IMG/VR virus record: IMGVR_UViG_3300017646_000001 | Span: 32,001-96,000 of that record | Reading direction: 5' to 3' (one strand) | DNA: 64,000 nucleotides | Origin: a virus | Shown: positions 10,022 through 52,338 of the stretch, in pieces | Position numbering within the stretch: the first letter of the stretch is position 1 | Layout: each line of letters starts with the position of its first letter | Position numbers and translations under genes: made by a program | The notes under the pieces: generated by a model | Database searches by the model: none | Seen by the model: the letters and a program-made list of their open reading frames with translations, nothing else | Told to the model about the DNA's origin: nothing

Positions 10022-10612
10022 ATGCCCCGTATCCTTTTGGTGGGAGCTTCTTCCACCGGTAAAACCACTCTCGCCCGTGAAATCGAAGCCAAGCTCGGCA
10101 TCCCGTTCGTATCGGTGCAAACCGGCGACTTGATGCGCGAGTGCGGCGTCCACAGCCACCCTGACCTGCTGCGCCGAACCCCGGAATTTCAGGCCGAATT
10201 TCAGCTTCGACTCGCCCTGGACCGCCTATCCCTGATGCGCCAGCACGAAAATTGCGTGATGGACCGTAGTCCCTTGGACGCCTACGTCTACTACCTGCTC
10301 GGGCCGGCCGCACACCTGAACGCGGAACAAGGCGACTTGCTAGTCGACGCGATGCGCCAGGCGCTGCAACTGTCCGACCTGTCGGTCTACTACAAATTTG
10401 GGTCGATCCCGCTATCGGCCAACGACTTGCGGTCGACCAATCCGCATTTTCACCAAGCCACGTGCGCGTTGTACGGTCACCTGCTGAGCCAGCTTACCAT
10501 GGATGCTCGTCGCCCGTACCGTACGTCGCGCGTGTCCAAGCTGGAGCACCGACTGGCCGAAATCGTCGCATACCTCACTCCGGCTGACCCCTGCTGCGCT
10601 GAGGCTTCGTAA
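10022..10612 (+). CDS. P-loop nucleotide kinase (NadR/AAA_28-like)
   Basis: LVGASSTGKTTLA Walker A and MDRSPLDAYVY motif. Confidence 0.8.
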   Translation: MPRILLVGASSTGKTTLAREIEAKLGIPFVSVQTGDLMRECGVHSHPDLLRRTPEFQAEFQLRLALDRLSLMRQHENCVMDRSPLDAYVYYLLGPAAHLNAEQGDLLVDAMRQALQLSDLSVYYKFGSIPLSANDLRSTNPHFHQATCALYGHLLSQLTMDARRPYRTSRVSKLEHRLAEIVAYLTPADPCCAEAS

Positions 10613-12556: not shown

Positions 12557-15361
12557 ATGAAAATTTGTCTCTCGGCGGATTGGCATTGTCATCCGTGGTC
12601 CACTCACGCTCGGTATAACGAATTTGGTGTTCCGGATCGGTTGGAGCTGTTTCTGACACTGGCGCAAGATATTCGCCAGTTGTGCGCGCAGCGCGGCGTG
12701 GAACACCAAATCGTAGCGGGCGACATCCTGCAAACGCATTCCCCCAAACCGATGGTGTCGAACACGGTGCGCGCCATGTTCGATGTGTTCGAAGAAGCTG
12801 AAATCCACACCTTGGTTGTGGTAGGCAACCACGACGTCGATCAGAAGTCAGGGCGGTTTGACGATATCCACTCCGGCCTAGCCGCTTTGGTGCGAGGGTA
12901 TAAGCACGTGGAATACTACGGTGCGCCGGCTACGGTCGCGTTCGCCGGTCAACGGGTTTATATCCACCCGTGGGTACACGGCGAACCTAACTACGACGCC
13001 ATGCCGGAGGCTGACATCTTTGTCGGTCACGGCATCGTTCAGCAGTCAACCGACCCGCATGGACACGTATTCGAGAATGGGTACGACGCGCGACGTTTGG
13101 GCGAGCACTTCCGATTTTCGGTTATCGGGGATATCCATCGTGGCCAAGTATTGCACGGTGAGAACGGCAGCAAGACGCTGATTCCTGGTCAGCCAATGCA
13201 AATTAACCATGCTTCAGATCCTAATTCCGGTATTTGGTTTCTGGATACCGAAGACTATAGCTTGGAGTTCGTGCCGACCACTGAATTCCCGTCTGCTGAT
13301 CGGTACCACCGGTTTCTTTCTGTAGAAGGAGAGCCGCCTACCGATGCGCCTGCCAACGTGCACTATAAGCGCAAGATGTCGCGTAAGAGCGCAGACCGGC
13401 AGCAGGTGGAAACCGAAGTCGTGCAGGTGGCTCAGCAAAACCTGCTGGACGTGGCTCTGTCCGAGTTCCATATGCTCAAGCCCGAGCATGCTGAAGAGGG
13501 TGCACAACTTCTGAGGGACGCCTACGAGCAAGTGCGCGAGATGGCCCCTAAGGAGCGCATCCACTCCAACCAGCGTTTGGGCCGTTTGGAGATCCACGAC
13601 TTCTACTCCATTCCGGACTACGTGCTGGATTTGCAGCAAATGGAAGGCGACGTACTGATCGTCGGAAAGAACGGACACGGCAAGTCCAGTCTGGTAGAGG
13701 CCGTGTTTTGGTGCTTAACGGGCGAGAACACCAAGCGCACGCCGGTTGATCAAATCTCGAACAATGTCACCGGTCAGCCAGCACGGGTTTCTCTGGAAGT
13801 CTTGGATGGCAAGGATGTGTGGAAGATCACACGTTCTCGTGCCGAGCCGTTGCTCACTCTGGAGCAAAATGGAGTCAGCCAGACTAAGGCCAAGACGATC
13901 GAAACCCAGGAACAGATTTATCAGCTGTTGGGCATGCGCGGCGCGTCCGACCTACTGTCGTTGATTTATTTCTCAGTCAATCAGAACAAGTCGTTCTCGG
14001 ACATGTTGCCCAGCGAACAGCTGGAGTTTTTGGGTCGCTTGACTGACTCCGAACAGTTCGAGGAGTTCAAGCGCATCCTGTCCGAACAGGAAGTCGAACT
14101 ATCGCGTCAATACTCGGAGCATTTGATCGAGCAGCGTACGGTCCAAGGTTTGATCGAACAGCGAGAAGCGCAGATCGCTGAGCTTTCCCAACGCTCTGCG
14201 ACCGACGTAGAGCAGGCCGCTATCGCTCGCGTCAATGAGCACTATGGGTTGGAATTGACCAACTCCGCCGACGCCAAACGCGCGTTACAGGCGGTGCAAA
14301 CCACGCTGCAACAAAAGGCCGACGCCTGCGCTACCGAACAAGAAGCCAGTAATGCTGAAAACGCGTTGCGCATTACTCGCTCAGCCATCACGCAGCAGGA
14401 AAACGCGCTTTCCCGAACTCAGGTCGAGCTGACGCGCATAGAAGGCGACATCGGCACTCTGACGCGCCGTTACGAGCAGGCTCTGTCTAACAAGTGCCCT
14501 GAGTGCGGTCAGGCTGTGCACGACCCAGATATCCAAAACCGTATTCTGGCTCAGGTTAAGGAAGTAGGACAACGGCGCAAGTCTCTACTAACCGAAGTTT
14601 CCGCGATCGAGCAAGAAATCTCGGCGCTGCGTCAAAAAGAACCCGGTCAAGCTACGCTTGCCGCTCAGATGCGGGAGAGTGCTACCAATCGTGCCGGGTT
14701 CGAATTTCAAGTCAAGCAGGCTGCCGCTCTGCTGTTGGAGTTCGAAGCCGAAGTCACGGACCACGCTGCCAAGATACAACATTACCAGGATGATATCAAG
14801 CAGCTCAAGACACGCTTGGCTAATTCCCGCGCGGAGTCTGATAAGTTGGAACCGCGTTATCGCGCTGCTCAGTTAATTAAGAGCAAAATGCTGGTGAAGA
14901 ACTCCAGCATGGTGCAGCAGATGGTGTCTGGTGTCTACGCTGCGTTAGTACAGACCATGAACGACATGGTGGGTGACCGCCGCTTGTTTCATGCTAAGGC
15001 TGTGACTGGCAAAAAGCTGGACATGAAGGTGTCGTTCCGAGGCGAGAAGCCGGTCACGATGCGTGGCATGAGCGCGGGCGAACGCCGCTTGCTCGATATT
15101 CTGTCCCTCTTCGCTCTGAACACTATGTTTGAGCGCCGGTTTGGGCTGCAAGACGGCATTCTTGGCGTAGCCTTCTACGACGAAATTGTCACCTACCTGG
15201 ACCCCGAATACCTGGATATCGTGTTCTCTGCTATCCAGAATCTGCAAACGCGCCTTCGCGTCATGGTGACACACGACGAGAACCTGATGAGCTACTACGA
15301 TAAGATCATCCGTGTTGAGAAGGTAGATCGACTCACCCGATTCACGATGATAAACATGTAA
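12557..15361 (+). CDS. Fused Mre11/SbcD nuclease-Rad50/SbcC ATPase
   Basis: N-terminal SADWH, AGD, GNHD, GH, GDIH phosphoesterase motifs; then GKNGHGKS, coiled coil with CPEC zinc hook, MSAGE signature, FYDE, VTH. Confidence 0.9.
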   Translation: MKICLSADWHCHPWSTHARYNEFGVPDRLELFLTLAQDIRQLCAQRGVEHQIVAGDILQTHSPKPMVSNTVRAMFDVFEEAEIHTLVVVGNHDVDQKSGRFDDIHSGLAALVRGYKHVEYYGAPATVAFAGQRVYIHPWVHGEPNYDAMPEADIFVGHGIVQQSTDPHGHVFENGYDARRLGEHFRFSVIGDIHRGQVLHGENGSKTLIPGQPMQINHASDPNSGIWFLDTEDYSLEFVPTTEFPSADRYHRFLSVEGEPPTDAPANVHYKRKMSRKSADRQQVETEVVQVAQQNLLDVALSEFHMLKPEHAEEGAQLLRDAYEQVREMAPKERIHSNQRLGRLEIHDFYSIPDYVLDLQQMEGDVLIVGKNGHGKSSLVEAVFWCLTGENTKRTPVDQISNNVTGQPARVSLEVLDGKDVWKITRSRAEPLLTLEQNGVSQTKAKTIETQEQIYQLLGMRGASDLLSLIYFSVNQNKSFSDMLPSEQLEFLGRLTDSEQFEEFKRILSEQEVELSRQYSEHLIEQRTVQGLIEQREAQIAELSQRSATDVEQAAIARVNEHYGLELTNSADAKRALQAVQTTLQQKADACATEQEASNAENALRITRSAITQQENALSRTQVELTRIEGDIGTLTRRYEQALSNKCPECGQAVHDPDIQNRILAQVKEVGQRRKSLLTEVSAIEQEISALRQKEPGQATLAAQMRESATNRAGFEFQVKQAAALLLEFEAEVTDHAAKIQHYQDDIKQLKTRLANSRAESDKLEPRYRAAQLIKSKMLVKNSSMVQQMVSGVYAALVQTMNDMVGDRRLFHAKAVTGKKLDMKVSFRGEKPVTMRGMSAGERRLLDILSLFALNTMFERRFGLQDGILGVAFYDEIVTYLDPEYLDIVFSAIQNLQTRLRVMVTHDENLMSYYDKIIRVEKVDRLTRFTMINM

Positions 15362-18634: not shown

Positions 18635-19057
18635 ATGGACCCCATTACCGTAGATTCGACTGAATACCTAGACCTGTTGGGAGAACGCGAACGTCAGATC
18701 GTATACGGGGCGCAGTCGTTGATCCGCGCCGCGCTCCCTACAGGCAATGAAGTACTGGCGTACGCCCGTCTGAACCTGGAGACGCAGGACGACCTCAACA
18801 ATCTGTTGAGCAACGTCACCATGGTGTACAACCGCAAGTACTCCCAAATGCGTACCTTGGAGTCACGTCTTCGCGACTCGTATAAAGAAGATGGCATCAA
18901 GGCGCGAGAAGAACGCGACGTAGCTGTGCACTCCGACTCCAAATGGGTAGACCTGCATCTAAGTGCGAGTACGTTGCAGGTGCTGATGCGCCGGCTTGAA
19001 GCTCTGTCCTGGAACCTCCGCAACGCTCTCGCTATCGTCACGCACAGCGCCAAATGA
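18635..19057 (+). CDS. Helical protein, possible UvsY-like recombination mediator
   Basis: 140 aa, all-helical, ends LEALSWNLRNAL, located beside recA. Confidence 0.4.
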   Translation: MDPITVDSTEYLDLLGERERQIVYGAQSLIRAALPTGNEVLAYARLNLETQDDLNNLLSNVTMVYNRKYSQMRTLESRLRDSYKEDGIKAREERDVAVHSDSKWVDLHLSASTLQVLMRRLEALSWNLRNALAIVTHSAK

Positions 19058-22000
19058 ATATTACCATCCTCTCCGACCAAGAAGGCTCCGACCTCATCCC
19101 CGACTTGCTGCAAGAGGCTGGGCTAGACCCCAACCTTGTTAATATCATGTCGTATCGTAGTCTGGGGTATAATCAGGCCACGGTGCTGGCCGATATGAAC
19201 GCCCGTGCTCACGACCTGATCATTTGTTTGGGGTCTTATGCGCTGTCCGTATTGGTTCCTGGAAGGGAAGGCGATAAGATCGGCAAACTGCGTGAAGACG
19301 AGACGATGGAGTGGCACGACATACCAGTGCGGATGTCGTACTCCACCAAGTACCTATCCAAACGTGGCGGCAAGGGCAGCCGTGATTTCCAGCTGGTGGC
19401 ACACGACATCAAGCGGTTCGCCGCCTTCAACGTCCGTGCCGAAAACAACTTCAAATACGAGCTGTTTGGCCCGAATCAAGTATACGAGTTTCTATCCAAG
19501 TTCATTGACGCGGAGCACTGTGCCCTCGACTATGAAGGTAGCTCGCTTGAGCCAACAATTGCCGACTTCCAGCTGGGCGGCATTGGCTTGGCTAGAGAGG
19601 GATACGCTGCTTACCTCTGCTTCAAGGATTTCGGCGACCTGGAATACAAGCTCAAACCTGAAGACGCTAAGCTAATCGGTAAGTTCCTCAAGATGAAGAA
19701 CGACCGGGCTAAACTAATGGTGTTCAACCTGGGATACGAGGTTCCAACTACGCGGGCCGTGTTCCACATGCACCTAGACAAAATTATCGACGTGATGCAG
19801 ATGTATCGCACACTGGACATCACAGGCGGTCTGAAGGAAATCTCCAAGTATCACTTGGGTTCGATCGGTTGGACCAAGGAAGTCGATCAATGGCGCGATG
19901 CCTTCATTGCTCTACTAGGTGCTCTTAAACCTACCAAGCTGCGTAATCAGCCCGAGTATAAGCCTCTGACTGAAGGCGGCATAGCTGCTGTGGTACAGTT
20001 CTTGCAAGACAAGGTAGAGAAAGCGCGTATTGCGGCTGAAAAAAAGGGGGAACAGCCTAAGCCTAATATCCGGGTTGATAAGCTATTAGAGCTAATTGAC
20101 CGTGTGCTTAACATGGCACGCCAGTATTACGGCGACGAAGCCGAGCAGAAGGTGACTACCTATCTGCTACACAAGTTGGAGTTGCGCGAGTATGAATGCA
20201 ACTACACCGAGATTCCCAAGGAAATCACCGGTCCGTATTGCGGCGCTGACTGCCATAATACTCTTGAGTTGTACCACAAGATACTTCCCAAGATCGTGGA
20301 ACAAAAGCTGGAGCCAGCTTTTGGTTACTACAATCGGCATATTTATCTCGGCACAGCCATGGAGCAAAACGGCATCGCTTGGGATGACACGCGCGCTTCT
20401 CAGATCGAGGCTGAGCACAATGAGGTCATGGTCGACTCGATGCGCCGTTTCTTGCTATCCGAGTCGGTGCGCCGAGCCCTACGCGTTCCGGACGGCAACG
20501 GTGGTACCCGCCCGTTAAGCAACCAGGACTTTGTGGATATTCAGTCTAGCACTGACCTGAATTTCCTCAAGGGGTATTTTAACCCCGATTCCACGGCCCC
20601 GGCGAACACCCAGCTGTTGAGCCGTATTATGGTCACGCCGCTCACTCGCATTGCTCTGATGTTGCACGAGATCGGTACTGAGTACCAATCCGACCCTGAA
20701 GGTGCAACCGAGAAGTGGCCTGCGCTGGTGGAGCTGATCAAGATGATCTACCAGACGCCACAAGACCAGCGTGGCAGACACACGCTTAAGCAATTCTTGG
20801 ACGCGTTTGCGACACTCAAGGATGGCGGGTACCTTCAAGACAAAGAGCTAGACCTGTACGCCAAGTATGCGTCCTATCACCTGCCTGACGCCAGCGGCGA
20901 CACCATCCAGACGCTGATGGACGCCTACACGATGTACACCGGAGCCGACCTTAATAAACGGGAAAGCTGGATTCCCGAGGTCGAGCCCGTTTTTTACTAT
21001 AAGTTGTTTAAGAAGACATCCAAGGCAGTATCGTCGTTCTTGAATGGCGCTGGTGGACGCAAGGCGGTGCGCATTGCTCGATACGACGCCGAATCCGACC
21101 AGTATAAGCTGCTGGCACGGTACGAAGATCGACCCCTGTCAGACGGGGAAATATATTTGTACCAACCCAGTTACGGGGTAAACCGCGCTAAAACTAAGCG
21201 CTGGACGTCGGCTTACCACGGTATACCGTCCATGTCCGAGAGCCGTCAGTGTTTTGTGTCGCGCTATGGCGACTCGGGCATCTTTATGAAGGGCGACTTC
21301 TCGCAGCACGAACTGCGTATTATCGCCGCGCTGTGCCAAGACCCAGGGTTGCAGGAAGCCTTCATTAACAATCGAGACTTGCACCGCATGGTTGCAAGCA
21401 AGATGTATGACAAGCCGGAAGACGAGGTTACCGATAACGAGCGGGCCGTGGCTAAATCGGCGAATTTCGGGATTGTGTATCTGAAGACACCCGAATCGTT
21501 CGCCATTGATTACCTTAATGGCGATGTAGAAGCCGCGCGCCGCTTGTTTGGCGTGATTTTCGACATGTTCCCATTACTGCGTGAATGGCGGGATCGTCAG
21601 ATTGCTAGCCTGCATGAGCAGATCGCGGCGCAAGGCGGTCAGTTCGTGCGCTTCCCGATCCATACCCTATGGGGCGATCCGATCTGGCACGAGTTCGATG
21701 CCACCAAAAAGATGGAACTGATCGACGCTGAGCGCTACGCCGTGAACTGGCAGGTGCAGAGCACTGCTTCCAACCTTGCTGGTCTGGCTTTGGCTGAAAC
21801 CGATGTGTTCCTCACGAGCGGTGGCTATAAGACCAAGGCTTTTGGTTTCACCCACGACTCGGAGGAATTTGATGCTCATTTGGACGAATTCTTCCTGATG
21901 CTGAACAAGGTACCGGAAATCTCGGAAAAATACCTGTTCGATCAGTTCAAGCTGCCAGTTAAGCTGGACATGGAAATGGGCATTAACCTGGGATCGTTGG

Positions 22001-22263
22001 TGGAGATTGGTCGCGTTAAGGGCAACGACTCGTTCTTCAATGCGGATGGCCACGCTCATCTGAACCTCAGTGGCGCAGTAGAAGATATGGAAGCGGCAAT
22101 CTCTCGCTTGTCCAACCGTTATGATGTACAAGTGTTGGGCGGCAGTGAAAAGGAAAAATACGACAGTTGGAGCACCGTGTTTTCCGCTAAGGGGTGTTTC
22201 TATAGCGGTATTGGTCAGACCTCCATTGTCGGCAAGCGCGAAATCCTTGTCGTTCAGCGATAA
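19054..22263 (+). CDS. Family A DNA polymerase with degenerate N-terminal UDG-like domain and 3'-5' exonuclease
   Basis: Exonuclease motifs LDYE, FNLGYE, YCGAD; polymerase motifs DFSQHELR, RAVAKSANFGIVY, NWQVQST, THDS; N-terminal IICLGSYA..KIGKLR. Confidence 0.92.
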   Translation: MNITILSDQEGSDLIPDLLQEAGLDPNLVNIMSYRSLGYNQATVLADMNARAHDLIICLGSYALSVLVPGREGDKIGKLREDETMEWHDIPVRMSYSTKYLSKRGGKGSRDFQLVAHDIKRFAAFNVRAENNFKYELFGPNQVYEFLSKFIDAEHCALDYEGSSLEPTIADFQLGGIGLAREGYAAYLCFKDFGDLEYKLKPEDAKLIGKFLKMKNDRAKLMVFNLGYEVPTTRAVFHMHLDKIIDVMQMYRTLDITGGLKEISKYHLGSIGWTKEVDQWRDAFIALLGALKPTKLRNQPEYKPLTEGGIAAVVQFLQDKVEKARIAAEKKGEQPKPNIRVDKLLELIDRVLNMARQYYGDEAEQKVTTYLLHKLELREYECNYTEIPKEITGPYCGADCHNTLELYHKILPKIVEQKLEPAFGYYNRHIYLGTAMEQNGIAWDDTRASQIEAEHNEVMVDSMRRFLLSESVRRALRVPDGNGGTRPLSNQDFVDIQSSTDLNFLKGYFNPDSTAPANTQLLSRIMVTPLTRIALMLHEIGTEYQSDPEGATEKWPALVELIKMIYQTPQDQRGRHTLKQFLDAFATLKDGGYLQDKELDLYAKYASYHLPDASGDTIQTLMDAYTMYTGADLNKRESWIPEVEPVFYYKLFKKTSKAVSSFLNGAGGRKAVRIARYDAESDQYKLLARYEDRPLSDGEIYLYQPSYGVNRAKTKRWTSAYHGIPSMSESRQCFVSRYGDSGIFMKGDFSQHELRIIAALCQDPGLQEAFINNRDLHRMVASKMYDKPEDEVTDNERAVAKSANFGIVYLKTPESFAIDYLNGDVEAARRLFGVIFDMFPLLREWRDRQIASLHEQIAAQGGQFVRFPIHTLWGDPIWHEFDATKKMELIDAERYAVNWQVQSTASNLAGLALAETDVFLTSGGYKTKAFGFTHDSEEFDAHLDEFFLMLNKVPEISEKYLFDQFKLPVKLDMEMGINLGSLVEIGRVKGNDSFFNADGHAHLNLSGAVEDMEAAISRLSNRYDVQVLGGSEKEKYDSWSTVFSAKGCFYSGIGQTSIVGKREILVVQR

Positions 22264-27496: not shown

Positions 27497-29434
27497 ATGA
27501 TCCTCAACGAGTTACAACAGGAACAGCATAAAGCCGCCATGGAGCGGCTTTACAATTCTCCTGAGTACCGAGAACTAGAGCGCCAAATCTCGGTTAACAA
27601 CCCGCGCATTCAAAATCTTAAGCCGGCGGTCCGGCTTACTGCCATATATTTGCTCAAGTATGGCGGTGAGTTCATGGTGGATGATCTATGGCGGCTGTTT
27701 TATAAGCGTCGTCCTCCTACTATCGAGGAATACCTGTCGCCTAAGGTGCTGCCCGAAACAAACCAAATCTTGTACCCCAAGTGGCGGCAAGAGGCCCATG
27801 AGATTTTTGCTACGGGTTCTACCTTCTTTGAGGTTGTCATCGGAGGGGCCATTGGAGGCGGCAAATCGACATTTGCCACCATTTTGCATTTGTACAACCT
27901 GATTCGTGTAGCCCTATTACTCAATCCACACGCCACTCTGGGTTCGGCTCCAAACAAGACGTTAATTTTATCGCTCTTTACGATTACTCTGCCAAAAGCG
28001 CGTAAAGCGTTGGTAGAGCCATTCCTTGCACTAATGAAGGAATGTGAGGAATACTTCGAGTATGTTGAGGACCGCCGCGAATGCAAGGCCGGCTTTCCCT
28101 CGTTTGCTAACTCGGACAAAATTCCTTTTTACGACAACAATACCGAAATTATCCTGCCTAAGTCGGTCAACGTGATGCTGGGTTCCCAGACCACGCACGC
28201 GTTGTCGTTTGATATGTTTGGGGCTTTCCTGGACGAGGCCGAATTTCGAGGCGATGCAGGCGGGGCTGAAAAAGCCATGGAAGTGTGGAACTCGTTGCGC
28301 ACTCGCGTAACGTCTCGCTTCTTGGATTCCCGTTTTACGTTCGTATCACTCGTATCGTCTGCGCGATACGCGACCGGGGTGATGGCGACTTATACCAAGT
28401 CCATCTCACCCGACTCTAAGGTTTCCAAATACTTGTCGTATCCCATTTGGGAAATCAAGAGTTTCGATTCCTACAAACAGGGCCATTTCTATATCCTGCG
28501 TGGTAATTCGGCTAACCCTAGCCGCATGCTAGAGGTAGAGCATGACAGCATCGAAGCTGGACAGTATGTGGTTCCAGAAGGATGCGAGGTAGTCAAGGTA
28601 CCTAAGGTTTACTACCGCGAGTTCAAGTTCGACTTAGAGAACTCTATTCGCGACCTAGCAGGGATGCAAACGCTTAATGCGGACTTCCCGTTCCAGAAAA
28701 CCTCGCATATTGAAGCCCCATTCCTGACTCCTGAATTTGTGATTCAGGCTCCGTTGGGCGAAGGTATCCCACTCATTAACAAGCTACCGGAGCAGCTGTT
28801 CACTGAAACCCCCTCCGGGTTGCGTTTGGCGCGATACGGGTCGGTATACCGATATGCCCACGTGGACTTAGCCGAAGCTAACGTGGCGGGCTTGACTATA
28901 TCGCACAAAGAAAGCTATAAAGGGCGCACGGTCTACGTAGTGGACCTTACATGCGAAATTAAGTCGCCTACTCGTATTGACATCAACGCGATTGAACAGC
29001 TATTAATCGACTTGCACCATCAACGCGGAGTGTTATTTCATACCATTACCGCTGACCAGTACCAGTCTACTGCCATGAGACAGCGGCTGGAAGTCCTAGG
29101 TGTAGCGCAGAAGGTAGAGCTGCTGTCGGTTGATAAGACTCTGGTTCCCATAGGCGACGTAGCGCGCCTTGTGATAGAAGACCGCCTGAAAATAGGCCCG
29201 TGTCCACATTTACGCGAGCAGATGGAACAGCTGCGCGTAGACCCCGCCGCGTCGGCTAAAAAGGTAATACGTGGCCCCGCTGGTAAGGACCAATTTGACT
29301 CCATGGTAGGGTCTATTACTAACGCTATCGCGAACATCGAAGACGTGCCTAGCGTGGAATATGAAGAGCTAAGCACAGACGAAAAATTATCTGCACGCTT
29401 AGAGTCTGTGTTTGACGGGTTAAACCTGATTTGA
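27497..29434 (+). CDS. terL: Terminase large subunit
   Basis: GAIGGGKST Walker A, FLDEAE Walker B, VSS coupling motif; nuclease motifs HVDLA, TADQYQS, DQFDS. Confidence 0.85.
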   Translation: MILNELQQEQHKAAMERLYNSPEYRELERQISVNNPRIQNLKPAVRLTAIYLLKYGGEFMVDDLWRLFYKRRPPTIEEYLSPKVLPETNQILYPKWRQEAHEIFATGSTFFEVVIGGAIGGGKSTFATILHLYNLIRVALLLNPHATLGSAPNKTLILSLFTITLPKARKALVEPFLALMKECEEYFEYVEDRRECKAGFPSFANSDKIPFYDNNTEIILPKSVNVMLGSQTTHALSFDMFGAFLDEAEFRGDAGGAEKAMEVWNSLRTRVTSRFLDSRFTFVSLVSSARYATGVMATYTKSISPDSKVSKYLSYPIWEIKSFDSYKQGHFYILRGNSANPSRMLEVEHDSIEAGQYVVPEGCEVVKVPKVYYREFKFDLENSIRDLAGMQTLNADFPFQKTSHIEAPFLTPEFVIQAPLGEGIPLINKLPEQLFTETPSGLRLARYGSVYRYAHVDLAEANVAGLTISHKESYKGRTVYVVDLTCEIKSPTRIDINAIEQLLIDLHHQRGVLFHTITADQYQSTAMRQRLEVLGVAQKVELLSVDKTLVPIGDVARLVIEDRLKIGPCPHLREQMEQLRVDPAASAKKVIRGPAGKDQFDSMVGSITNAIANIEDVPSVEYEELSTDEKLSARLESVFDGLNLI

Positions 29435-29476: not shown

Positions 29477-29752
29477 ATGGCTCATTCGGCTCAGCGCGTA
29501 CAGTACACCAAGGAAGACGGCTCCAGTACCGAGCGCGTCCTCATTCTCGATTCCAACGATACCGTTCTCGCCCTCGACGTGACCGATCTGACCGAAGAGC
29601 AGCGCCGTATCGTTGAGGAAGAAAACGCCAAGCACCAAGAATCCATCAAGGAGGCAATCAAGGCGCTGCGCTCCATGAAGGATCGACTGGCTCCTTACGG
29701 TATCGAACCCAAGTGGCGCTCATTCAAGCGCTCGGGGCTGAAGAGCCTGTAA
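29477..29752 (+). CDS. Hypothetical SH3/WYL-like protein
   Basis: YTKEDGSSTER...ALDV...WRSFK. Confidence 0.6.
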   Translation: MAHSAQRVQYTKEDGSSTERVLILDSNDTVLALDVTDLTEEQRRIVEEENAKHQESIKEAIKALRSMKDRLAPYGIEPKWRSFKRSGLKSL

Positions 29753-29757
29753 CCGCC

Positions 29758-30093
29758 ATGGGCGTTCAAACGCACGAGTGTCCCTTGGCGGGCATTCAAC
29801 ATCACGACGTCGACTCGGTACGGGAACAGCTGCGTGAACTCGCTCCGCTGCAGCTGCGCCCTGAGCCCGAGAACGAGTACGATCCCAACGCTGTGGGAGT
29901 GTACTACGAGGGCCACAAGCTGGGGTTTGTCGCTAAAACCGTAGCCGCCCGCATCAGTGCTCTGCTTCGGGGTGGCGCGCCCTACTCAGCCGTGATCAGT
30001 CAAATTGATTGGTCGGCTCAACCCTATCATCAAGTCCATATGGTCGTCGCCGTTCGTACCCCGGACGTAGAAGGCGAAGGAGTCACTGAATGA
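29758..30093 (+). CDS. HIRAN domain protein
   Basis: LRPEPENEYDPNAVGVY..GHKLGFV. Confidence 0.85.
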   Translation: MGVQTHECPLAGIQHHDVDSVREQLRELAPLQLRPEPENEYDPNAVGVYYEGHKLGFVAKTVAARISALLRGGAPYSAVISQIDWSAQPYHQVHMVVAVRTPDVEGEGVTE

Positions 30094-30401
30094 CCAGAGC
30101 CGCTGAATACGCTATTCGAAATCTGTTTAGCCAGATACCCGTGTCGAACTTCATGGTGTCCAACCGGGATTCGGCCGAAGCCGTGCGTCAGATGCTGTGC
30201 GACCGGGTGGTAGCTGAACTGCCGCCTGAAAACCCTGCTCCGCCGCGCAGCGTTTGGCGTGATCCCATCACCGATGCACCCAAGGACGGCGAACGCGTCC
30301 TGGTTAAAACCAACACCGGCAACGTTATGATGGTGAACTGGTATGGTCCCAGTATCATCCACCGTGCTGGCATCATCGCATGGTGTTACGAACCAGCATG
30401 A
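30090..30401 (+). CDS. Hypothetical protein (DUF551-like C-terminus)
   Basis: WRDPITDAPKDGERVLV...IIAW. Confidence 0.55.
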   Translation: MTRAAEYAIRNLFSQIPVSNFMVSNRDSAEAVRQMLCDRVVAELPPENPAPPRSVWRDPITDAPKDGERVLVKTNTGNVMMVNWYGPSIIHRAGIIAWCYEPA

Positions 30402-31651
30402 GCATATACCACCCCCTCACTTGGAGAAATCAGTTGGGTACCAAAGACAAGAAGCAAGGCCTGTTCCACATCTTACTGGACGGTGGGCATGGATCGAGCG
30501 GGAAGGGAGCGGCTGTGTGCCGTCTTGCCGAACTGCTGAAAGTGCAGAACTCGTCGGCCAACCACTCAGCCAACGCGGGACACACCATGGTACGCCCGGA
30601 TGGCGAAGCCTACGTGTTTAAGGCGCTGCCTTCGGCCGCTGCTCTGGGCTGGATGGGTTCGGAAGTGCGACCGCGACTCTGGGTGGGCCCCAACTCGGGA
30701 TTCGAAGAAGCCCAGTTCCTGAAAGAAATCCGGGACATGAAGCTGCGCATGAGCGACGTATTCGTCCATCACCGCGCCGCTCTCGTTCAAGACCACCACA
30801 AGCAGCTGGAAGGTCCGGGCGGCGCGCTGAGTACGCTGCACATTTCGTCCACCATGTCCGGTGCAGGTGCGACTTATGCGTCCAAAGCGATGCGCCAGCT
30901 CGACACTCTGTATGCAGGCGAAGTGGATTCGATCAAGGGTGTGGCTACCGTTGGCCGACCCGACTCCTTCTGGCGCGCCATTCAGTCGCGTTTGCAGAGC
31001 GGCGAAAGCTTCCTGCACGAGGTAGCCCAGGGCTTCGCTCTCTCGCTCGACTACGGCAACCACGACCGCCACGGTACGTTCCGCAACTGCACCGCGCAGC
31101 AGGGCGCGGCCGACATGGGTATCTTGCCGCATCAAATCGGCAACGTCTACCTCAACCTGCGTACTTACCCGATCCGTGTCGGCAACAACTTCGACGCCGA
31201 TGGCAACCGCGTTGGCTATTCGGGCGACTGGGAAGCCGACCAGCAAGAGCTGGACTGGGAAACGATCGGCCGCGCGGCCGGTATGCCGGAAGAAGAAATC
31301 CAGGCCCTCTTCTACAAGGAAAAGACTACCGTCACCAAGAAGCTGCGCCGCGTGGCTTCGTTCACCATGACCGGTACCAAGTTCGCCGCCGCGTTCAATG
31401 GGGCGACGCACCTGATCCTGAACTTCACATCCTACGTGGACTGGGCCTCGACCGACGTTAGCGGGGGTCGATCGGCCTACCAGGGCCTGTCGCGCCGCTT
31501 GCGCAAGTTCGTCGAAGATATCGAGGATGGCGTGGGCCTGCCCGTGGTGATGCTCGGTACGGGTGCGAAGCACGACTCGTTTATCTTGCCTTACGGTGAT
31601 ATCAACGTAGGTTCTCCCGCGTTGAGCCGCCAACCGAAACAGGCCGCGTAA
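30398..31651 (+). CDS. purZ: PurZ-like N6-succino-2-amino-2'-deoxyadenylate synthase (PurA paralog)
   Basis: GSSGKG (Ser where PurA has Asp), NAGHT, AQG, RTYPIRV, SG..DQQEL.W, TTVT..LRRV, and NF in place of PurA TKLD. Confidence 0.8.
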   Translation: MSIYHPLTWRNQLGTKDKKQGLFHILLDGGHGSSGKGAAVCRLAELLKVQNSSANHSANAGHTMVRPDGEAYVFKALPSAAALGWMGSEVRPRLWVGPNSGFEEAQFLKEIRDMKLRMSDVFVHHRAALVQDHHKQLEGPGGALSTLHISSTMSGAGATYASKAMRQLDTLYAGEVDSIKGVATVGRPDSFWRAIQSRLQSGESFLHEVAQGFALSLDYGNHDRHGTFRNCTAQQGAADMGILPHQIGNVYLNLRTYPIRVGNNFDADGNRVGYSGDWEADQQELDWETIGRAAGMPEEEIQALFYKEKTTVTKKLRRVASFTMTGTKFAAAFNGATHLILNFTSYVDWASTDVSGGRSAYQGLSRRLRKFVEDIEDGVGLPVVMLGTGAKHDSFILPYGDINVGSPALSRQPKQAA

Positions 31652-31671
31652 CCGGCAGCGCGTTCCACCTA

Positions 31672-31689
31672 GCCCGGCTTCGGCCGGGC
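31672..31689 (+). other. GC-rich cUUCGg hairpin between purZ and mazZ-like genes
   Basis: GCCCGGC-TTCG-GCCGGGC with no U-tract. Confidence 0.7.
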
Positions 31690-31712
31690 AAAATATCTCG
31701 GAATCCATTGAG

Positions 31713-32441
31713 ATGAATAACAGACAGTTTCAACATTTGCTGAACCAAGTCTTCGACCGGCTACAACAGCTTTCAGCTACCAAGGGACAAGAATATACCC
31801 AAGGCGAAGCCGGTGGCGAACGGCTTCGCAACTTCAAGCGACCCGCTGAAAACGTAGGTGATCACCCACTCAAGGCATGGTGGTACTACCTCAACAAGCA
31901 CTACGAGTCGATTACGACCTTCGTTAAGCAGGTGAGCGACGGCACGTTTGCGGGTCACGACCAGCTTTCTGAACCGATGGAGGGTCGTTTCCACGACCTG
32001 ATCCTGTACGGCATCCTGGGCATCGGGTTGATGCGCGATACTGTGCCCGTAGACGACCGTCAGCGTCAGCTGTGGGAAGACGCAGCTCATGAGCATGCTT
32101 ACCCAACCGAGCAGGCCGAGCCGCCAACAACCCTGCCCGAACTGCAGGCCTTCGTCGCCCAGTGGGCTGGTCAAGTTTTTCCACAGCGCACGCTTGATAC
32201 GATTCGCGCTAAGCTTGTGCACCACGAACTGCCAGAACTAATGGTAGCTCTCGGCGACCGCGATTGGGATAAGGTGGACGACGAAATGGTGGACAACGTC
32301 ATCTTGATTATGGACCACATGAGCTTGCGCGGCAAGGACTTGCTCACGGCTATTCGCGACAAGCAGCGTGTTAATCTGCGCCGACGTTGGCAGCAAGATG
32401 CGAACGGCGTCTCCTCTCACATCAAGGAAGAAAAAGAATGA
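31713..32441 (+). CDS. mazZ: Two-domain all-alpha NTP pyrophosphohydrolase: DUF1599-like N-terminus + MazZ/DUF550-like C-terminus
   Basis: N-terminal KGQEY..RLRNF..KH..EP.EGR.HDL..Y; C-terminal QWA..VFP..K...E..EL..DEMVD..IL..D..K..VN..R.W...NGVSSH; directly after purZ. Confidence 0.7.
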   Translation: MNNRQFQHLLNQVFDRLQQLSATKGQEYTQGEAGGERLRNFKRPAENVGDHPLKAWWYYLNKHYESITTFVKQVSDGTFAGHDQLSEPMEGRFHDLILYGILGIGLMRDTVPVDDRQRQLWEDAAHEHAYPTEQAEPPTTLPELQAFVAQWAGQVFPQRTLDTIRAKLVHHELPELMVALGDRDWDKVDDEMVDNVILIMDHMSLRGKDLLTAIRDKQRVNLRRRWQQDANGVSSHIKEEKE

Positions 32442-33124
32442 GCGGTATTCCTAAAAGTCACGTTTCTTCCTTTCCTGCTTATGGGCCGATGAGCTACATC
32501 GATGCGGCCTTTTCGACTTCGCATCTGCGCCGGTTTCACATGTGCCGCGTCCAGCGTGAGTCTCACCTGTCGGACCATACGGTGCGGGTAGCTTTCGCCT
32601 TCCGCCACTTCTTGCGCATGTGGCTGGACAACCGCGACGTGCAGGCTTGGCTGGATACACAACCATCCATTTCCATTACCAATATACGGCTCATAGGGCT
32701 AGAAATGGCGCTCGACCACGATCTACTGGAAGTGCTGACTGGTGACGTGGCTTCCCATGTGAAAACCCCTGAAATCCGCACCCAGCTTAAAGACCTGGAA
32801 AAACACTTAGCCAGCACGGTAGAACATGGGGAGTGGCACTTCCAGTCCACGTATCCTGAGACCGAAACCGATAGCCATAAGGTGGCATCTAAGCTGGTTA
32901 AGTTGGCTGATATTGCGGAATCCCTTATTTTCGCCTACTACAATCAGGGATTCGGTCCACTCATGCAGGATCGCAAGAGCCGCTGGGTGAACAATAACTA
33001 CGACAAGATGGCCACTCAGTACATTGACAACCTACCTGAGCCTTTCTTCCCCGAAAGCTTCCGCGTTAACATGCGCAACTTTATCGTGGATCGAAAGGCT
33101 GACGTCGCTCCACAACATGCCTGA
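32438..33124 (+). CDS. datZ: HD-domain phosphohydrolase, DatZ/YfbR-like
   Basis: LRRF...SDHTVRV, HDLLEVLTGDVASHVK, VKLAD; ATGA-coupled to the mazZ-like gene. Confidence 0.7.
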   Translation: MSGIPKSHVSSFPAYGPMSYIDAAFSTSHLRRFHMCRVQRESHLSDHTVRVAFAFRHFLRMWLDNRDVQAWLDTQPSISITNIRLIGLEMALDHDLLEVLTGDVASHVKTPEIRTQLKDLEKHLASTVEHGEWHFQSTYPETETDSHKVASKLVKLADIAESLIFAYYNQGFGPLMQDRKSRWVNNNYDKMATQYIDNLPEPFFPESFRVNMRNFIVDRKADVAPQHA

Positions 33125-33542
33125 TACCACCCACGGCATTAATTGTCCACAATGCGGCGGCGACTCCCGAGTTATTGATTCCAGGCCCATGGTATCAATG
33201 ATCAGACGCCGCCGCGCCTGCCGCGTGTGTGGATTTCGGTTCTCTACGGGAGAGATCGTACTGCCCGAGTCCGCTAGTTCAGACGCGGAAAGGATCGTTA
33301 CTGAAATCCAACAACACATAATTCACCAAGGCGGCAAGAAGTTTCAACACCGCAAGACGCCGGCCGAACGCATTATCATGGAAAAAAGGAAGAAGACTGC
33401 GCAAGCGGCGCGTATAGTGAAACAGATTAAGCCCTTTACTCCTCCTATTATTCCCAATACAGTGCTAGACGATCAAGCTAAGCGTAAGCGCGACTTGATT
33501 AACTCCAGGTACGAACAGGTACCGGACGAGGACGACTGGTAA
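33117..33542 (+). CDS. NrdR-like N-terminal zinc-ribbon protein without ATP cone
   Basis: CPQCGGDSRVIDSR...IRRRRACRVCGFRFSTGE. Confidence 0.75.
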   Translation: MPDTTHGINCPQCGGDSRVIDSRPMVSMIRRRRACRVCGFRFSTGEIVLPESASSDAERIVTEIQQHIIHQGGKKFQHRKTPAERIIMEKRKKTAQAARIVKQIKPFTPPIIPNTVLDDQAKRKRDLINSRYEQVPDEDDW

Positions 33543-33549
33543 ATACAGA

Positions 33550-33571
33550 TTGGGCCCCAAGCGGGGCCCAA
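33550..33571. terminator. Hairpin between convergent genes, probable terminator
   Basis: TTGGGCCCC-AAGC-GGGGCCCAA with weak U-tracts. Confidence 0.5.
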
Positions 33572-50922: not shown

Positions 50923-52338
50923 ATGACCCAACAAATCGCCGAATCCGCCGCCATCGCGATGCGTCGTCGCGAAGGCCACGTGCAAAACATCCTGGCCGAA
51001 AACCGGTCGTGGAAGAACAAGTACAAGAGCCTGCTGGTTCACCTCGAGTCGGGCGACGACGCGCTCAAGCGCCGCGTCATGAACACCCTGACCGTCATGC
51101 ACAACCAAGCCATGTACGTGGAAAGCCTGTCCAAGGATCCGCGCATGGAATCGACGTTCGTGCAGAACCTGGGCCAGCTGGTGCCGAAGGTCGTGGACCT
51201 GGTCCGCATCTTCTACCCGAACATGATCACGCACGATCTGGTCGACGTCCAGGCCATCGACCGCCAGAACGGCGAAATCTTCGTGGTCCGTCCTACCTTC
51301 TCGAACACCGCTGCCGGCGTCAACGCGGGCGACCAAGTGTTCAAGACTCCGACTGACGGCACGTACGCTTCCGAAAAGACCAACCTGTCGGCCACCGGTA
51401 CCGGTACCGGCCCCTACACCGCCACCGCCACCCGTCTGCCCCTGCGCCCCGGCCGTCAGCTCGTCTACGCTGCTGGCGTGCAAGTCGGTGTCGACGACGG
51501 TAACGGCGCGATCGTGGGTCCGAACATCGCTGCCGGCACGATCAACTACGCGACCGGCGCGATCTCGGTGACCTTCACGGCTGCTCCGACCGCCCCCGTC
51601 TCGTTCGGTACGATCGCCGACCTGGAAACCAACCCCGCCGGCATCCGCCGCATGTCGATCAACCTGTCCACGATTCCCGTGCAGGCGCAGCCCCATCCGC
51701 TGTTGATCGACTGGTCCGTCCAAGCTCAGCTGGCCGCTGCCGCCCACCTGGACATCGACATCCCGCAAACGCTGGCCGACGCCGTCGCCTCGTTCATCAA
51801 GCAGGAACGCGACCTGTCCGTGGTCTCGGCCATCCTGGCTTCCGCGCTGCACGACGCCAACCTGGACTTCGACGCCACCGCGCCGACGAACTACAGCCGC
51901 CTGGCTCGCTACGCCGAAATCGAGCTGAAGCTGAACTACGCCGAATCCGACATCCAAGTCGGCCAAGGCCGTGGTGGTGTGTCCTGGGTGCTGTGCGGCA
52001 CGAACGCCGCCGACATCTGGCGCAACTGCAACGGCTTCCAGCCCAGCGACGTCGTGGCCCCGATCGGCCCGCACAAGATCGGTACGCTGCGCGATGGCAC
52101 GGTCGCCGTCATCAAAGTCCCGACCATGGACCGCAACACGTACGCCATCGGTTTCAAGGGCTACGTGATGGGTGACGCCGCGACCATCTTGGCCGAGTGG
52201 ATTCCCCTGTATGCCACCCCGGTGTTCCAAGCGCCGGAAATGGTGAACAGCCAAGGCCTGACCTCGCTGTACCATCTGGAAAACAACCCGATGGTCAGCT
52301 ACTACCGCTTCGGCACCATCTCGAACTACGGCGCGTAA
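50923..52338 (+). CDS. Major capsid protein (T4 gp23-like)
   Basis: LVRIFYPNMI..DLV.VQ.I....G.IF, V.A....L...WS, IGTL, GFKG, Y/W-IPLY; extreme codon bias; follows the protease. Confidence 0.9.
   Translation: MTQQIAESAAIAMRRREGHVQNILAENRSWKNKYKSLLVHLESGDDALKRRVMNTLTVMHNQAMYVESLSKDPRMESTFVQNLGQLVPKVVDLVRIFYPNMITHDLVDVQAIDRQNGEIFVVRPTFSNTAAGVNAGDQVFKTPTDGTYASEKTNLSATGTGTGPYTATATRLPLRPGRQLVYAAGVQVGVDDGNGAIVGPNIAAGTINYATGAISVTFTAAPTAPVSFGTIADLETNPAGIRRMSINLSTIPVQAQPHPLLIDWSVQAQLAAAAHLDIDIPQTLADAVASFIKQERDLSVVSAILASALHDANLDFDATAPTNYSRLARYAEIELKLNYAESDIQVGQGRGGVSWVLCGTNAADIWRNCNGFQPSDVVAPIGPHKIGTLRDGTVAVIKVPTMDRNTYAIGFKGYVMGDAATILAEWIPLYATPVFQAPEMVNSQGLTSLYHLENNPMVSYYRFGTISNYGA

Follow-up and report, generated by a model that had tools for sequence, protein, structure and literature searches.

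The DNA analysed here, called the window, is a 64,000-nucleotide stretch of a virus record (IMG/VR IMGVR_UViG_3300017646_000001, positions 32,001 to 96,000), and it carries three coupled genes on the + strand (30398-33124) that form a purZ-mazZ-datZ cluster, the gene set with which some phages exchange adenine for 2-aminoadenine (Z). Homology, retained catalytic residues, gene order and translational coupling identify the cluster. From these we infer what its enzymes do, that host PurB is used and that virion DNA contains Z; it is probable that the DNA of this phage is largely or wholly Z-substituted and made with the PurB and kinases of the host. What is added to knowledge is a canonical triad of the S-2L type on the backbone of a 117.5-kb myovirus. 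Z-genome phages are described, in the accounts given in PMC8599892 and PMC8342488, as small sipho- and podoviruses, and the base swap to 2-aminoadenine probably occurs in large phages too. An earlier note on this DNA had read the three genes as a Z cluster, and this interpretation is supported by residue-level checks against solved or assayed enzymes and by the gene order of S-2L and Acinetobacter phage SH-Ab 15497.

Genes and predicted enzymes of the Z cluster

The three adjacent genes proposed in that note were confirmed as open reading frames (ORFs) at 30380/30398-31651, 31713-32441 and 32387/32438-33124 on the + strand, the starts at 30398 and 32438 being set by public gene calls (417 aa and 228 aa). 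The purZ-like gene (30398..31651, 417 aa) encodes a candidate succino-amino-deoxyadenylate synthase. It is followed, after a gap of 61 nt, by a two-domain mazZ-like gene (31713..32441, + strand, 242 aa) whose C-terminal domain (~132-238) is predicted to be of the MazZ-1/DUF550 type, and then by a datZ-like HD phosphohydrolase gene (32438..33124, + strand, 228 aa) whose start overlaps the mazZ stop (ATGA). The stop of a small ORF (30090..30401, + strand, 103 aa), which had no Pfam or PHROG match, overlaps the purZ start in the same way (ATGA). These overlaps point to translational coupling of the cluster genes. The order purZ-mazZ-datZ is that of S-2L and SH-Ab 15497.

The product of the first gene matched the Pfam family PF00709 (5.2e-25) and PHROG 1211, the PurZ family (2.6e-38). 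Its matches in the PDB were P. horikoshii PurA (2.2e-28), S-2L PurZ (7e-27), phiVC8 PurZ (2.4e-19) and the PurZ0 structure 7vf6 (2.6e-6). The family models did not decide the identity of this enzyme, and its residues were therefore checked. The translation holds GSSGKG, RTYPIRVGNNF and LNFTSY, so that all the motifs quoted earlier (GSSGKG, RTYPIRV and NF for TKLD) are present; the corresponding motifs of E. coli PurA are GDEGKG and TKLD. With PurZ residues numbered as in phiVC8, the signature residues of the window protein are S33 (=S14), T310 (=T262), F343 (=F295) and Y346 (=Y298), and those of E. coli PurA at positions 14, 262, 295 and 298 are D, G, K and V. S14 is the serine that PurZ has for the catalytic Asp13 of PurA and T262 lines the 2-amino pocket; both are kept in the window protein. 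F295 and Y298 are reported to hold the adenine of ATP (bioRxiv 10.1101/2025.10.22.683976), and the donor site of the window protein is of this ATP type, in place of the GTP motif. According to work cited in the same preprint, S14D abolishes the substrate selectivity of PurZ (bioRxiv 10.1101/2025.10.22.683976).

Across the 246 aligned rows, Ser occupies position 14 in 243, all but E. coli PurA and two rows with a gap there, and Phe occupies position 295 in 243, all but E. coli PurA and the two PurZ0 enzymes. P233, W252, G256 and S273 are also kept. The window protein deviates from phiVC8 PurZ at F12 (H31), Y244 (E), P144 (L) and I34 (S), and position 12 is variable in other aligned rows (Y, F, V or W). 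At the nucleoside triphosphate site, M/Q and the Asp of a GTP-type site are found in the PurZ0 enzymes of phages Wayne and Benry, whereas the window protein has the N-F-Y of PurZ. Judged by these residues, the window protein is a PurZ-type rather than a PurZ0-type enzyme. An AlphaFold model (AF2, 17 sequences) reached a predicted local distance difference test score of 82.3 and a predicted template modelling (TM) score of 0.85, and its top folds were 5k7x, 7odx and 6tnh (TM by target 0.81-0.89). The modelled structure matches PurZ and short archaeal PurA about equally, and the fold search cannot separate the two.

The only PDB match of the second gene is S-2L MazZ (2.3e-9, residues 135-238). 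In BLASTP its C-terminal domain is 38% identical to S-2L MazZ and 37% identical to residues 157-256 of the SH-Ab 15497 protein (E 2e-17). S-2L MazZ is described as a (d)GTP-specific pyrophosphohydrolase with E35, E38, E50 and residue 53 as metal ligands, R83 as the residue that stabilises the transition state and I56 and D60 as the determinants of guanine specificity (PMC8342488). Aligned with it, the window protein is identical at E35, E38, E50, D53, I56, D60 and R83. E34 is replaced by H; the same paper names E34 as the sole MazZ-1 metal ligand without strict conservation (PMC8342488). A MazG-like domain of the DUF550 type had been expected here, and the S-2L MazZ match, the identity to the DUF550 domain of SH-Ab and the key residues bear this out, with the DUF550 model itself (PF04447) below threshold. 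The gene also stands between purZ and datZ. A word-indexed search with the whole protein found only itself.

Fusions at the N-terminus are frequent in MazZ-1 according to PMC8342488. The N-terminal domain of the window protein (~1-130) matched phrog_6802 (1.2e-12), and its tblastn matches, all of them hypothetical proteins, came from Gordonia and Rhodococcus phages, from Microcystis phage Mel-JY34 and from an uncultured phage; none of these is in the set of PurZ-matching records. No match was found for this domain in Pfam up to E 10 or, with a 4-sequence profile, in the PDB up to E 10, and hhalign gave no link to the PF18909 domain of SH-Ab. The DUF1599 and PF18909 models were silent on the whole genome, and an Atlas lead tying the domain to DUF1599/MazG-like proteins was not confirmed.

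The third gene encodes an HD hydrolase, as the earlier note had it, with a YfbR-like HD domain (PF12917, 1.8e-9, 38 bits versus a cut-off of 25.9) and a match to phrog_7076, the dATP (deoxyadenosine triphosphate) triphosphohydrolase family (5.2e-11). Its PDB match to S-2L DatZ is weak (2.8e-4, 24% identity). In DatZ, H34, H66, D67 and D119 are given as metal ligands and R19, K81 and K116 as phosphate ligands (PMC8065100). All seven are invariant in our alignment A4, and G74 is kept too. On these residues the enzyme is very likely active; its selectivity for dATP may be affected by changes at other positions, which are weighed below.

Taken together, the genes suggest the following route to a Z genome. 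Once the host is infected, (d)GTP would be converted to deoxyguanosine monophosphate (dGMP) by the MazZ-1 domain at the C-terminus of the 242-aa protein, and the PurZ-like enzyme would join dGMP and aspartate to give succino-2-amino-deoxyadenylate, with ATP or dATP rather than GTP as the phosphate donor. Host PurB and host nucleotide kinases (or a kinase-like protein of the phage) would then turn this product into the triphosphate of Z (dZTP), while the DatZ-like HD hydrolase would clear dATP. Z would be placed opposite T by the phage's family A polymerase, an ordinary enzyme comparable to the non-selective PrimPol of S-2L, and the 117.5-kb genome in the virion would consist for the most part or entirely of ZTGC DNA. 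Six-frame searches with Pfam models found no PurB-like gene, dUTPase or NDT gene in the whole genome, so that the canonical S-2L-type route is the only one visible; host PurB is presumably used, and the PurZ0-type route set out in PMC12884076 presumably is not.

The presumed Z-inserting enzyme is a family A DNA polymerase of 1069 aa (19054..22263, + strand; PF00476, 1.8e-35), the sole polymerase recognised among 144 ORFs scanned; it is not a DpoZ. The kinase-like protein is a P-loop protein of 196 aa (10022..10612, + strand) that matches phrog_2107, thymidylate kinase (2.1e-8), and AAA_28, and has weak matches to the N-terminal part of adenylate kinase. It could, going by these matches, phosphorylate deoxynucleoside monophosphates including that of Z.

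PurZ relatives in large phages

A tblastn search of 50,697 phage records found a PurZ homologue in 189, all at less than 60% identity. Among the matches listed, the PurZ-bearing phage records were 38-67.5 kb long and at most 33% identical, which agrees with the statement in the earlier note that the characterised examples are small. With a best match of 33% in this collection, no deposited phage has a close relative of the window enzyme; equally, blastn of the cluster against the collection gave no match. Relatives were plentiful in larger collections. In a collection of 5.8 billion proteins at least 205 were found at E <= 1e-10, with 8000 candidates scored, and the 119 relatives listed were 34-62% identical and lay on contigs of up to 303 kb. 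A library of representatives at 50% identity gave 1479 matches at E <= 0.001 and 103 at <= 1e-30. IMG/VR yielded 145 PurZ relatives, from which 79 loci were kept, on contigs of up to 436 kb. A metagenome scan with the single PurZ protein returned nothing, and the scan with alignment A3 returned 13 loci.

Trees were built from subsampled rows with FastTree (106 rows) and IQ-TREE in quick mode (50 rows), rooted on E. coli PurA alone. From the root, PurZ0 branches off, then several small unnamed lineages, and then a part that holds both the window lineage and the clade of known PurZ. All six named PurZ group in a single clade (support 97 in FastTree and 94 in IQ-TREE), and the window protein falls in a separate lineage (91 and 89; inner nodes 98-100) together with proteins from large contigs. 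A phylogeny of PurA, PurZ and PurZ0 had been proposed as a check: the window enzyme does stand apart from PurZ0 and beside the known PurZ clade, but it lies outside that clade, in a lineage of its own. On its sequence, the window PurZ is a member of a metagenome-only lineage apart from the characterised enzymes. This lineage is common on phage contigs of 100-436 kb, of which the majority have neither DatZ nor MazZ.

Whole-record searches covered the records behind 50 of the 79 loci, and three of these records (G048-G050) have a PurZ only 28-31% identical. A YfbR-like domain was found in 10 of the 50 (6/16 among records at least 90% complete) and a DUF550 domain in none (1/51 with the window genome included); a PurB-like lyase was present in 13 of 51 records, the window genome counted. 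Searched with phmmer, the NrdR-like, HIRAN and DUF932 proteins of the window each had 0 matches in the ORFs of the 79 viral loci. A hidden Markov model of eight DatZ sequences found a DatZ-like ORF at 7/92 loci, and at five of these seven the PurZ was of 30-32% identity; jackhmmer with each half of MazZ found only S-2L MazZ. Two of five DatZ relatives are on contigs of 17,109 and 29,181 bp, the same sizes as for two close PurZ relatives, which suggests that purZ and datZ co-occur in close relatives. The closest retrievable relative, L090, has ligase, DUF7168/DUF2786 and RecA-like genes in common with the window. In large phages the genes downstream of PurZ are heterogeneous, with DUF6378 at one locus.

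As the triad is scarce in the records and loci of its relatives, the full triad appears to belong to this phage, and perhaps to some close kin, rather than to the lineage as a whole, and the window phage is the one member found that joins the large-phage PurZ lineage to the canonical S-2L triad. We tentatively regard this lineage as a large uncultured sister of PurZ, carried mainly on large and jumbo phage genomes of 100-436 kb, mostly without recognisable DatZ or MazZ and in some cases with a PurB-like lyase of its own; should Z be present in the window DNA, Z-DNA or some derived use of the PurZ reaction may conceivably be widespread among large and jumbo phages, which would exclude adenine in some other way.

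Three observations on these relatives stand by themselves. Directly downstream of the PurZ-like gene, 15 loci (L028, L030, L036, L037, L038, L040, L053, L054, L055, L058, L061, L065, L068, L069 and L076) have a family of proteins of 260-290 aa; three of the four members tested match PF01261, the xylose-isomerase-like TIM barrel family. Some PurZ-like representatives (P0121-P0126, P0129, P0135 and others) reach lengths of 750-1200 aa, and their matches to the query are split over two or three separate stretches, which suggests large insertions, possibly inteins or homing-endonuclease domains. The chromosome of Sorangium sp. So ce131 has a PurZ-type gene (L113:5016-6128) that is 40% identical and keeps Ser and N-F-Y; it lies beside genes for SSB and a 5'-3' exonuclease/AAA_24 protein and is probably part of a prophage.

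Alternative explanations of the cluster

Several observations weigh against a genome in which Z has replaced adenine throughout, and we consider them here with the other explanations to which they lend weight. W20, I22 and P79 of DatZ are described as selecting deoxyribose and excluding the 2-amino group (PMC8065100). The window enzyme is changed at all three (W20F, I22M, P79H), so that selective removal of dATP is not assured; five relatives that are 41-49% identical also have F and M at 20 and 22, with S at 79 where the window has H. The dZ-enriched contigs treated in bioRxiv 10.1101/2025.10.22.683976 show only the W20-I22 and Y20-T/S22 combinations, and F-M is neither. The polymerase, moreover, fails the NCBIfam DpoZ models NF038380 and NF038381 (29.6 bits versus a cut-off of 500, and 17.1 versus 350). 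The cluster might thus work with partial effect, dATP being incompletely cleared and an unselective polymerase inserting both bases to give mixed A/Z DNA. We hold this to be unlikely, as F and M are conservative, bulky replacements for W and I and DatZ of the phiVC8 type has L at position 22. S-2L, too, is reported to have no genomic adenine although its polymerase does not discriminate between A and Z, which its authors credit to DatZ (PMC8065100).

The first gene might instead encode an auxiliary short PurA of the archaeal type that makes adenylosuccinate from inosine monophosphate, with the two hydrolases reshaping nucleotide pools and the DNA remaining canonical. P. horikoshii PurA is among the best PDB matches in both sequence and fold, and the fold search puts it slightly above PurZ. 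The best NCBIfam model is that of PurZ (NF038379), at 149.8 bits under its cut-off of 300, and the archaeal-type PurA model NF003295 is close behind at 145.4 bits; archaeal PurA is missing from the trees, whose root lies on a single long branch. For the second gene, PF04447 remains sub-threshold at 13.3-15.3 bits versus a cut-off of 23, and S-2L MazZ itself scores 44.4 bits. Among the related large-phage records, 40/50 lack a YfbR-like gene and 50/50 lack DUF550, and a phmmer search with the window proteins found a MazZ-like or DatZ-like match beside PurZ in 0/79 viral loci. L090, with a PurZ of 53% identity, has unrelated genes at the mazZ and datZ places, and the cluster is no conserved block in its PurZ lineage. 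An ordinary PurA is nevertheless very unlikely: the catalytic Asp has become Ser, at the position where S14D abolishes selectivity and where Ser is all but invariant in the alignment, the GTP-specific Lys and Asp have become the Phe and Tyr of PurZ, and the genes beside it are precisely those of the two known PurZ partners. We consider it scarcely credible that the phage acquired the cluster recently, as a silent or decaying cassette that leaves the DNA unaffected. The cluster is absent from the nearest isolate, phiXF1, whose record is without any PurZ homologue and has only small genes after the terminase gene at the place of the cluster, and the G+C content at 30-32 kb is 58.6% versus 55.0% for the genome. 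The three frames, however, are open and full-length with their catalytic residues kept, the genes are translationally coupled, and the PurZ groups with other large-phage enzymes rather than with those of small Z phages. Near-identical DNA is also present in soil runs of a second study.

Genome setting, significance and comparison with known Z systems

The source is a single contig of 117,656 bp from soil, and the window spans bases 32001-96000 of it. The first 100 bases of the contig reappear at 117,533, ~123 bases before the contig end, giving a terminal overlap of at least 100 bases; IMG/VR classes the genome as having direct terminal repeats, and CheckV puts its completeness at 100%. Genes for a contractile tail include a sheath (PHROG 2.4e-75), two tube-like proteins, baseplate wedge proteins and a PAAR protein. 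The T4-like head and the rIIA/B genes named in the earlier note were all found: Portal_T4 (PF07230, 4.4e-11), an S77 prohead protease (2.7e-10), the major head protein (50923-52338; phrog_138, 1.3e-21), rIIA (5.9e-67) and rIIB (2.9e-42; both PHROG). The phage is thus a complete myovirus of 117.5 kb with a T4-type portal and prohead protease and with rIIA/B. Its large terminase gene (27497-29434), just upstream of the cluster region, encodes a protein 41% identical to the terminase of Xanthomonas phage phiXF1. Besides the family A polymerase, the replication and repair genes encode a ligase, DnaB-like and UvrD-like helicases, a primase, RNase H, a fused SbcD/SbcC-like protein, a UvsX-like recombinase and a dCMP deaminase. 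The SbcD/SbcC-like protein is one 934-aa ORF (window 12557-15361) with an SbcD-like N-terminus (phrog_100) and an SbcC-like remainder (phrog_77), nuclease and ATPase being apparently fused.

Around the cluster, a stand-alone HIRAN-domain protein (PF08797, 7.7e-12) is encoded at window 29713-30093, two genes upstream of purZ. A G+C-rich hairpin (31672..31689, + strand) with a 7-bp stem and a 4-nt loop lies in the purZ-mazZ gap. A run of A, not of T, comes after the hairpin, which was not called by the terminator scan and is not a canonical terminator on either strand. An NrdR-type zinc-ribbon protein of 141 aa (33117..33542, + strand; PF22811, 8.2e-12) overlaps the datZ stop by 8 nt. It matches TIGR00244 in its N-terminal part only (27.7 bits versus a cut-off of 124.65), with no recognised ATP-cone, and by virtue of its coupling to the cluster may regulate genes of nucleotide metabolism. 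Beyond it, a 9-bp G+C-rich palindrome (33550..33571) between the + strand cluster and a convergent DUF932 gene on the - strand is terminator-like, and the scan calls it on the - strand.

Elsewhere in the genome, a 200-aa protein with a phosphopantetheine-attachment (acyl carrier protein) domain is encoded at genome 109877-110479; the distant relative phiXF1 likewise has an annotated acyl carrier protein. The palindromic hexamers GGCGCC (0 versus 47.1 expected) and CCGCGG (0 versus 38.3) are wholly absent from the genome (1-117533). The next most avoided are GAGCTC (6 versus 24.7 expected) and CTCGAG (7 versus 22.3), and the other hexamers made of G and C only show no avoidance. A swap of Z for A cannot mask sites made of G and C only, and ordinary phages avoid host restriction sites too. 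This avoidance proves nothing about Z.

Full-text literature searches found no PurZ cluster described in a large myovirus; supplementary tables, which lay outside their scope, may list large contigs. The cluster in the window is distinctive in its separate PurZ lineage, its MazZ-1 fusion, the altered specificity residues of its DatZ and the PolA that is not a DpoZ. If the genome is indeed a Z genome, substitution would be compatible with T4-type head packaging and rII genes as well as with a large repair and replication set (SbcCD, a UvsX-like recombinase, ligase and RNase H), and the PolA would be a new natural polymerase that copies ~117 kb of ZTGC DNA. The wider question concerns the much larger set of big phages that have PurZ without the known helpers that exclude adenine.

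Among isolated phages, the nearest genome is that of Xanthomonas phage phiXF1 (113.5 kb), which has a similar size, a contractile tail and a PolA that is 30% identical over 94% of its length. PurZ0 systems such as those of Arthrobacter phage Wayne and Gordonia phage Ghobes (with DutZ, DmtZ and DUF5664, as set out in PMC12884076) have the Ser and Thr262 in common with the window; they differ in having M/Q and the Asp of a GTP-type site, whereas the window has N-F-Y. With the phiVC8/VP5 type (DpoZ, primase, PurZ, MazZ-2 and DatZ) the window phage has the PurZ signature residues and a DatZ partner in common, but that type uses MazZ-2 and a Z-selective DpoZ where the window phage has MazZ-1 and a polymerase that is not a DpoZ. 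The 43-kb genome of SH-Ab 15497 has a module of PolA, SSB, PurZ, a DUF5664+DUF550 pyrophosphohydrolase and a dATPase in the same order as the window, and its middle protein is likewise two-domained with a DUF550 part; the N-terminal domain there is PF18909, to which that of the window is not linked by hhalign or by the Pfam model. S-2L (PurZ, MazZ-1 and DatZ; PDB 7ODX, 7ODY and 6ZPA) has the same three families in the same order near the large terminase gene, a MazZ of the same MazZ-1 type and, like the window phage, no DpoZ. S-2L is described as a siphovirus of 45 kb (PMC8342488), whereas the window phage is a myovirus of 117.5 kb. The window PurZ is 33% identical to that of S-2L over the aligned region (by tblastn and also in a MAFFT alignment) and belongs to another lineage, the window MazZ has an extra N-terminal domain, and the polymerase is a PrimPol in S-2L and a PolA in the window phage.

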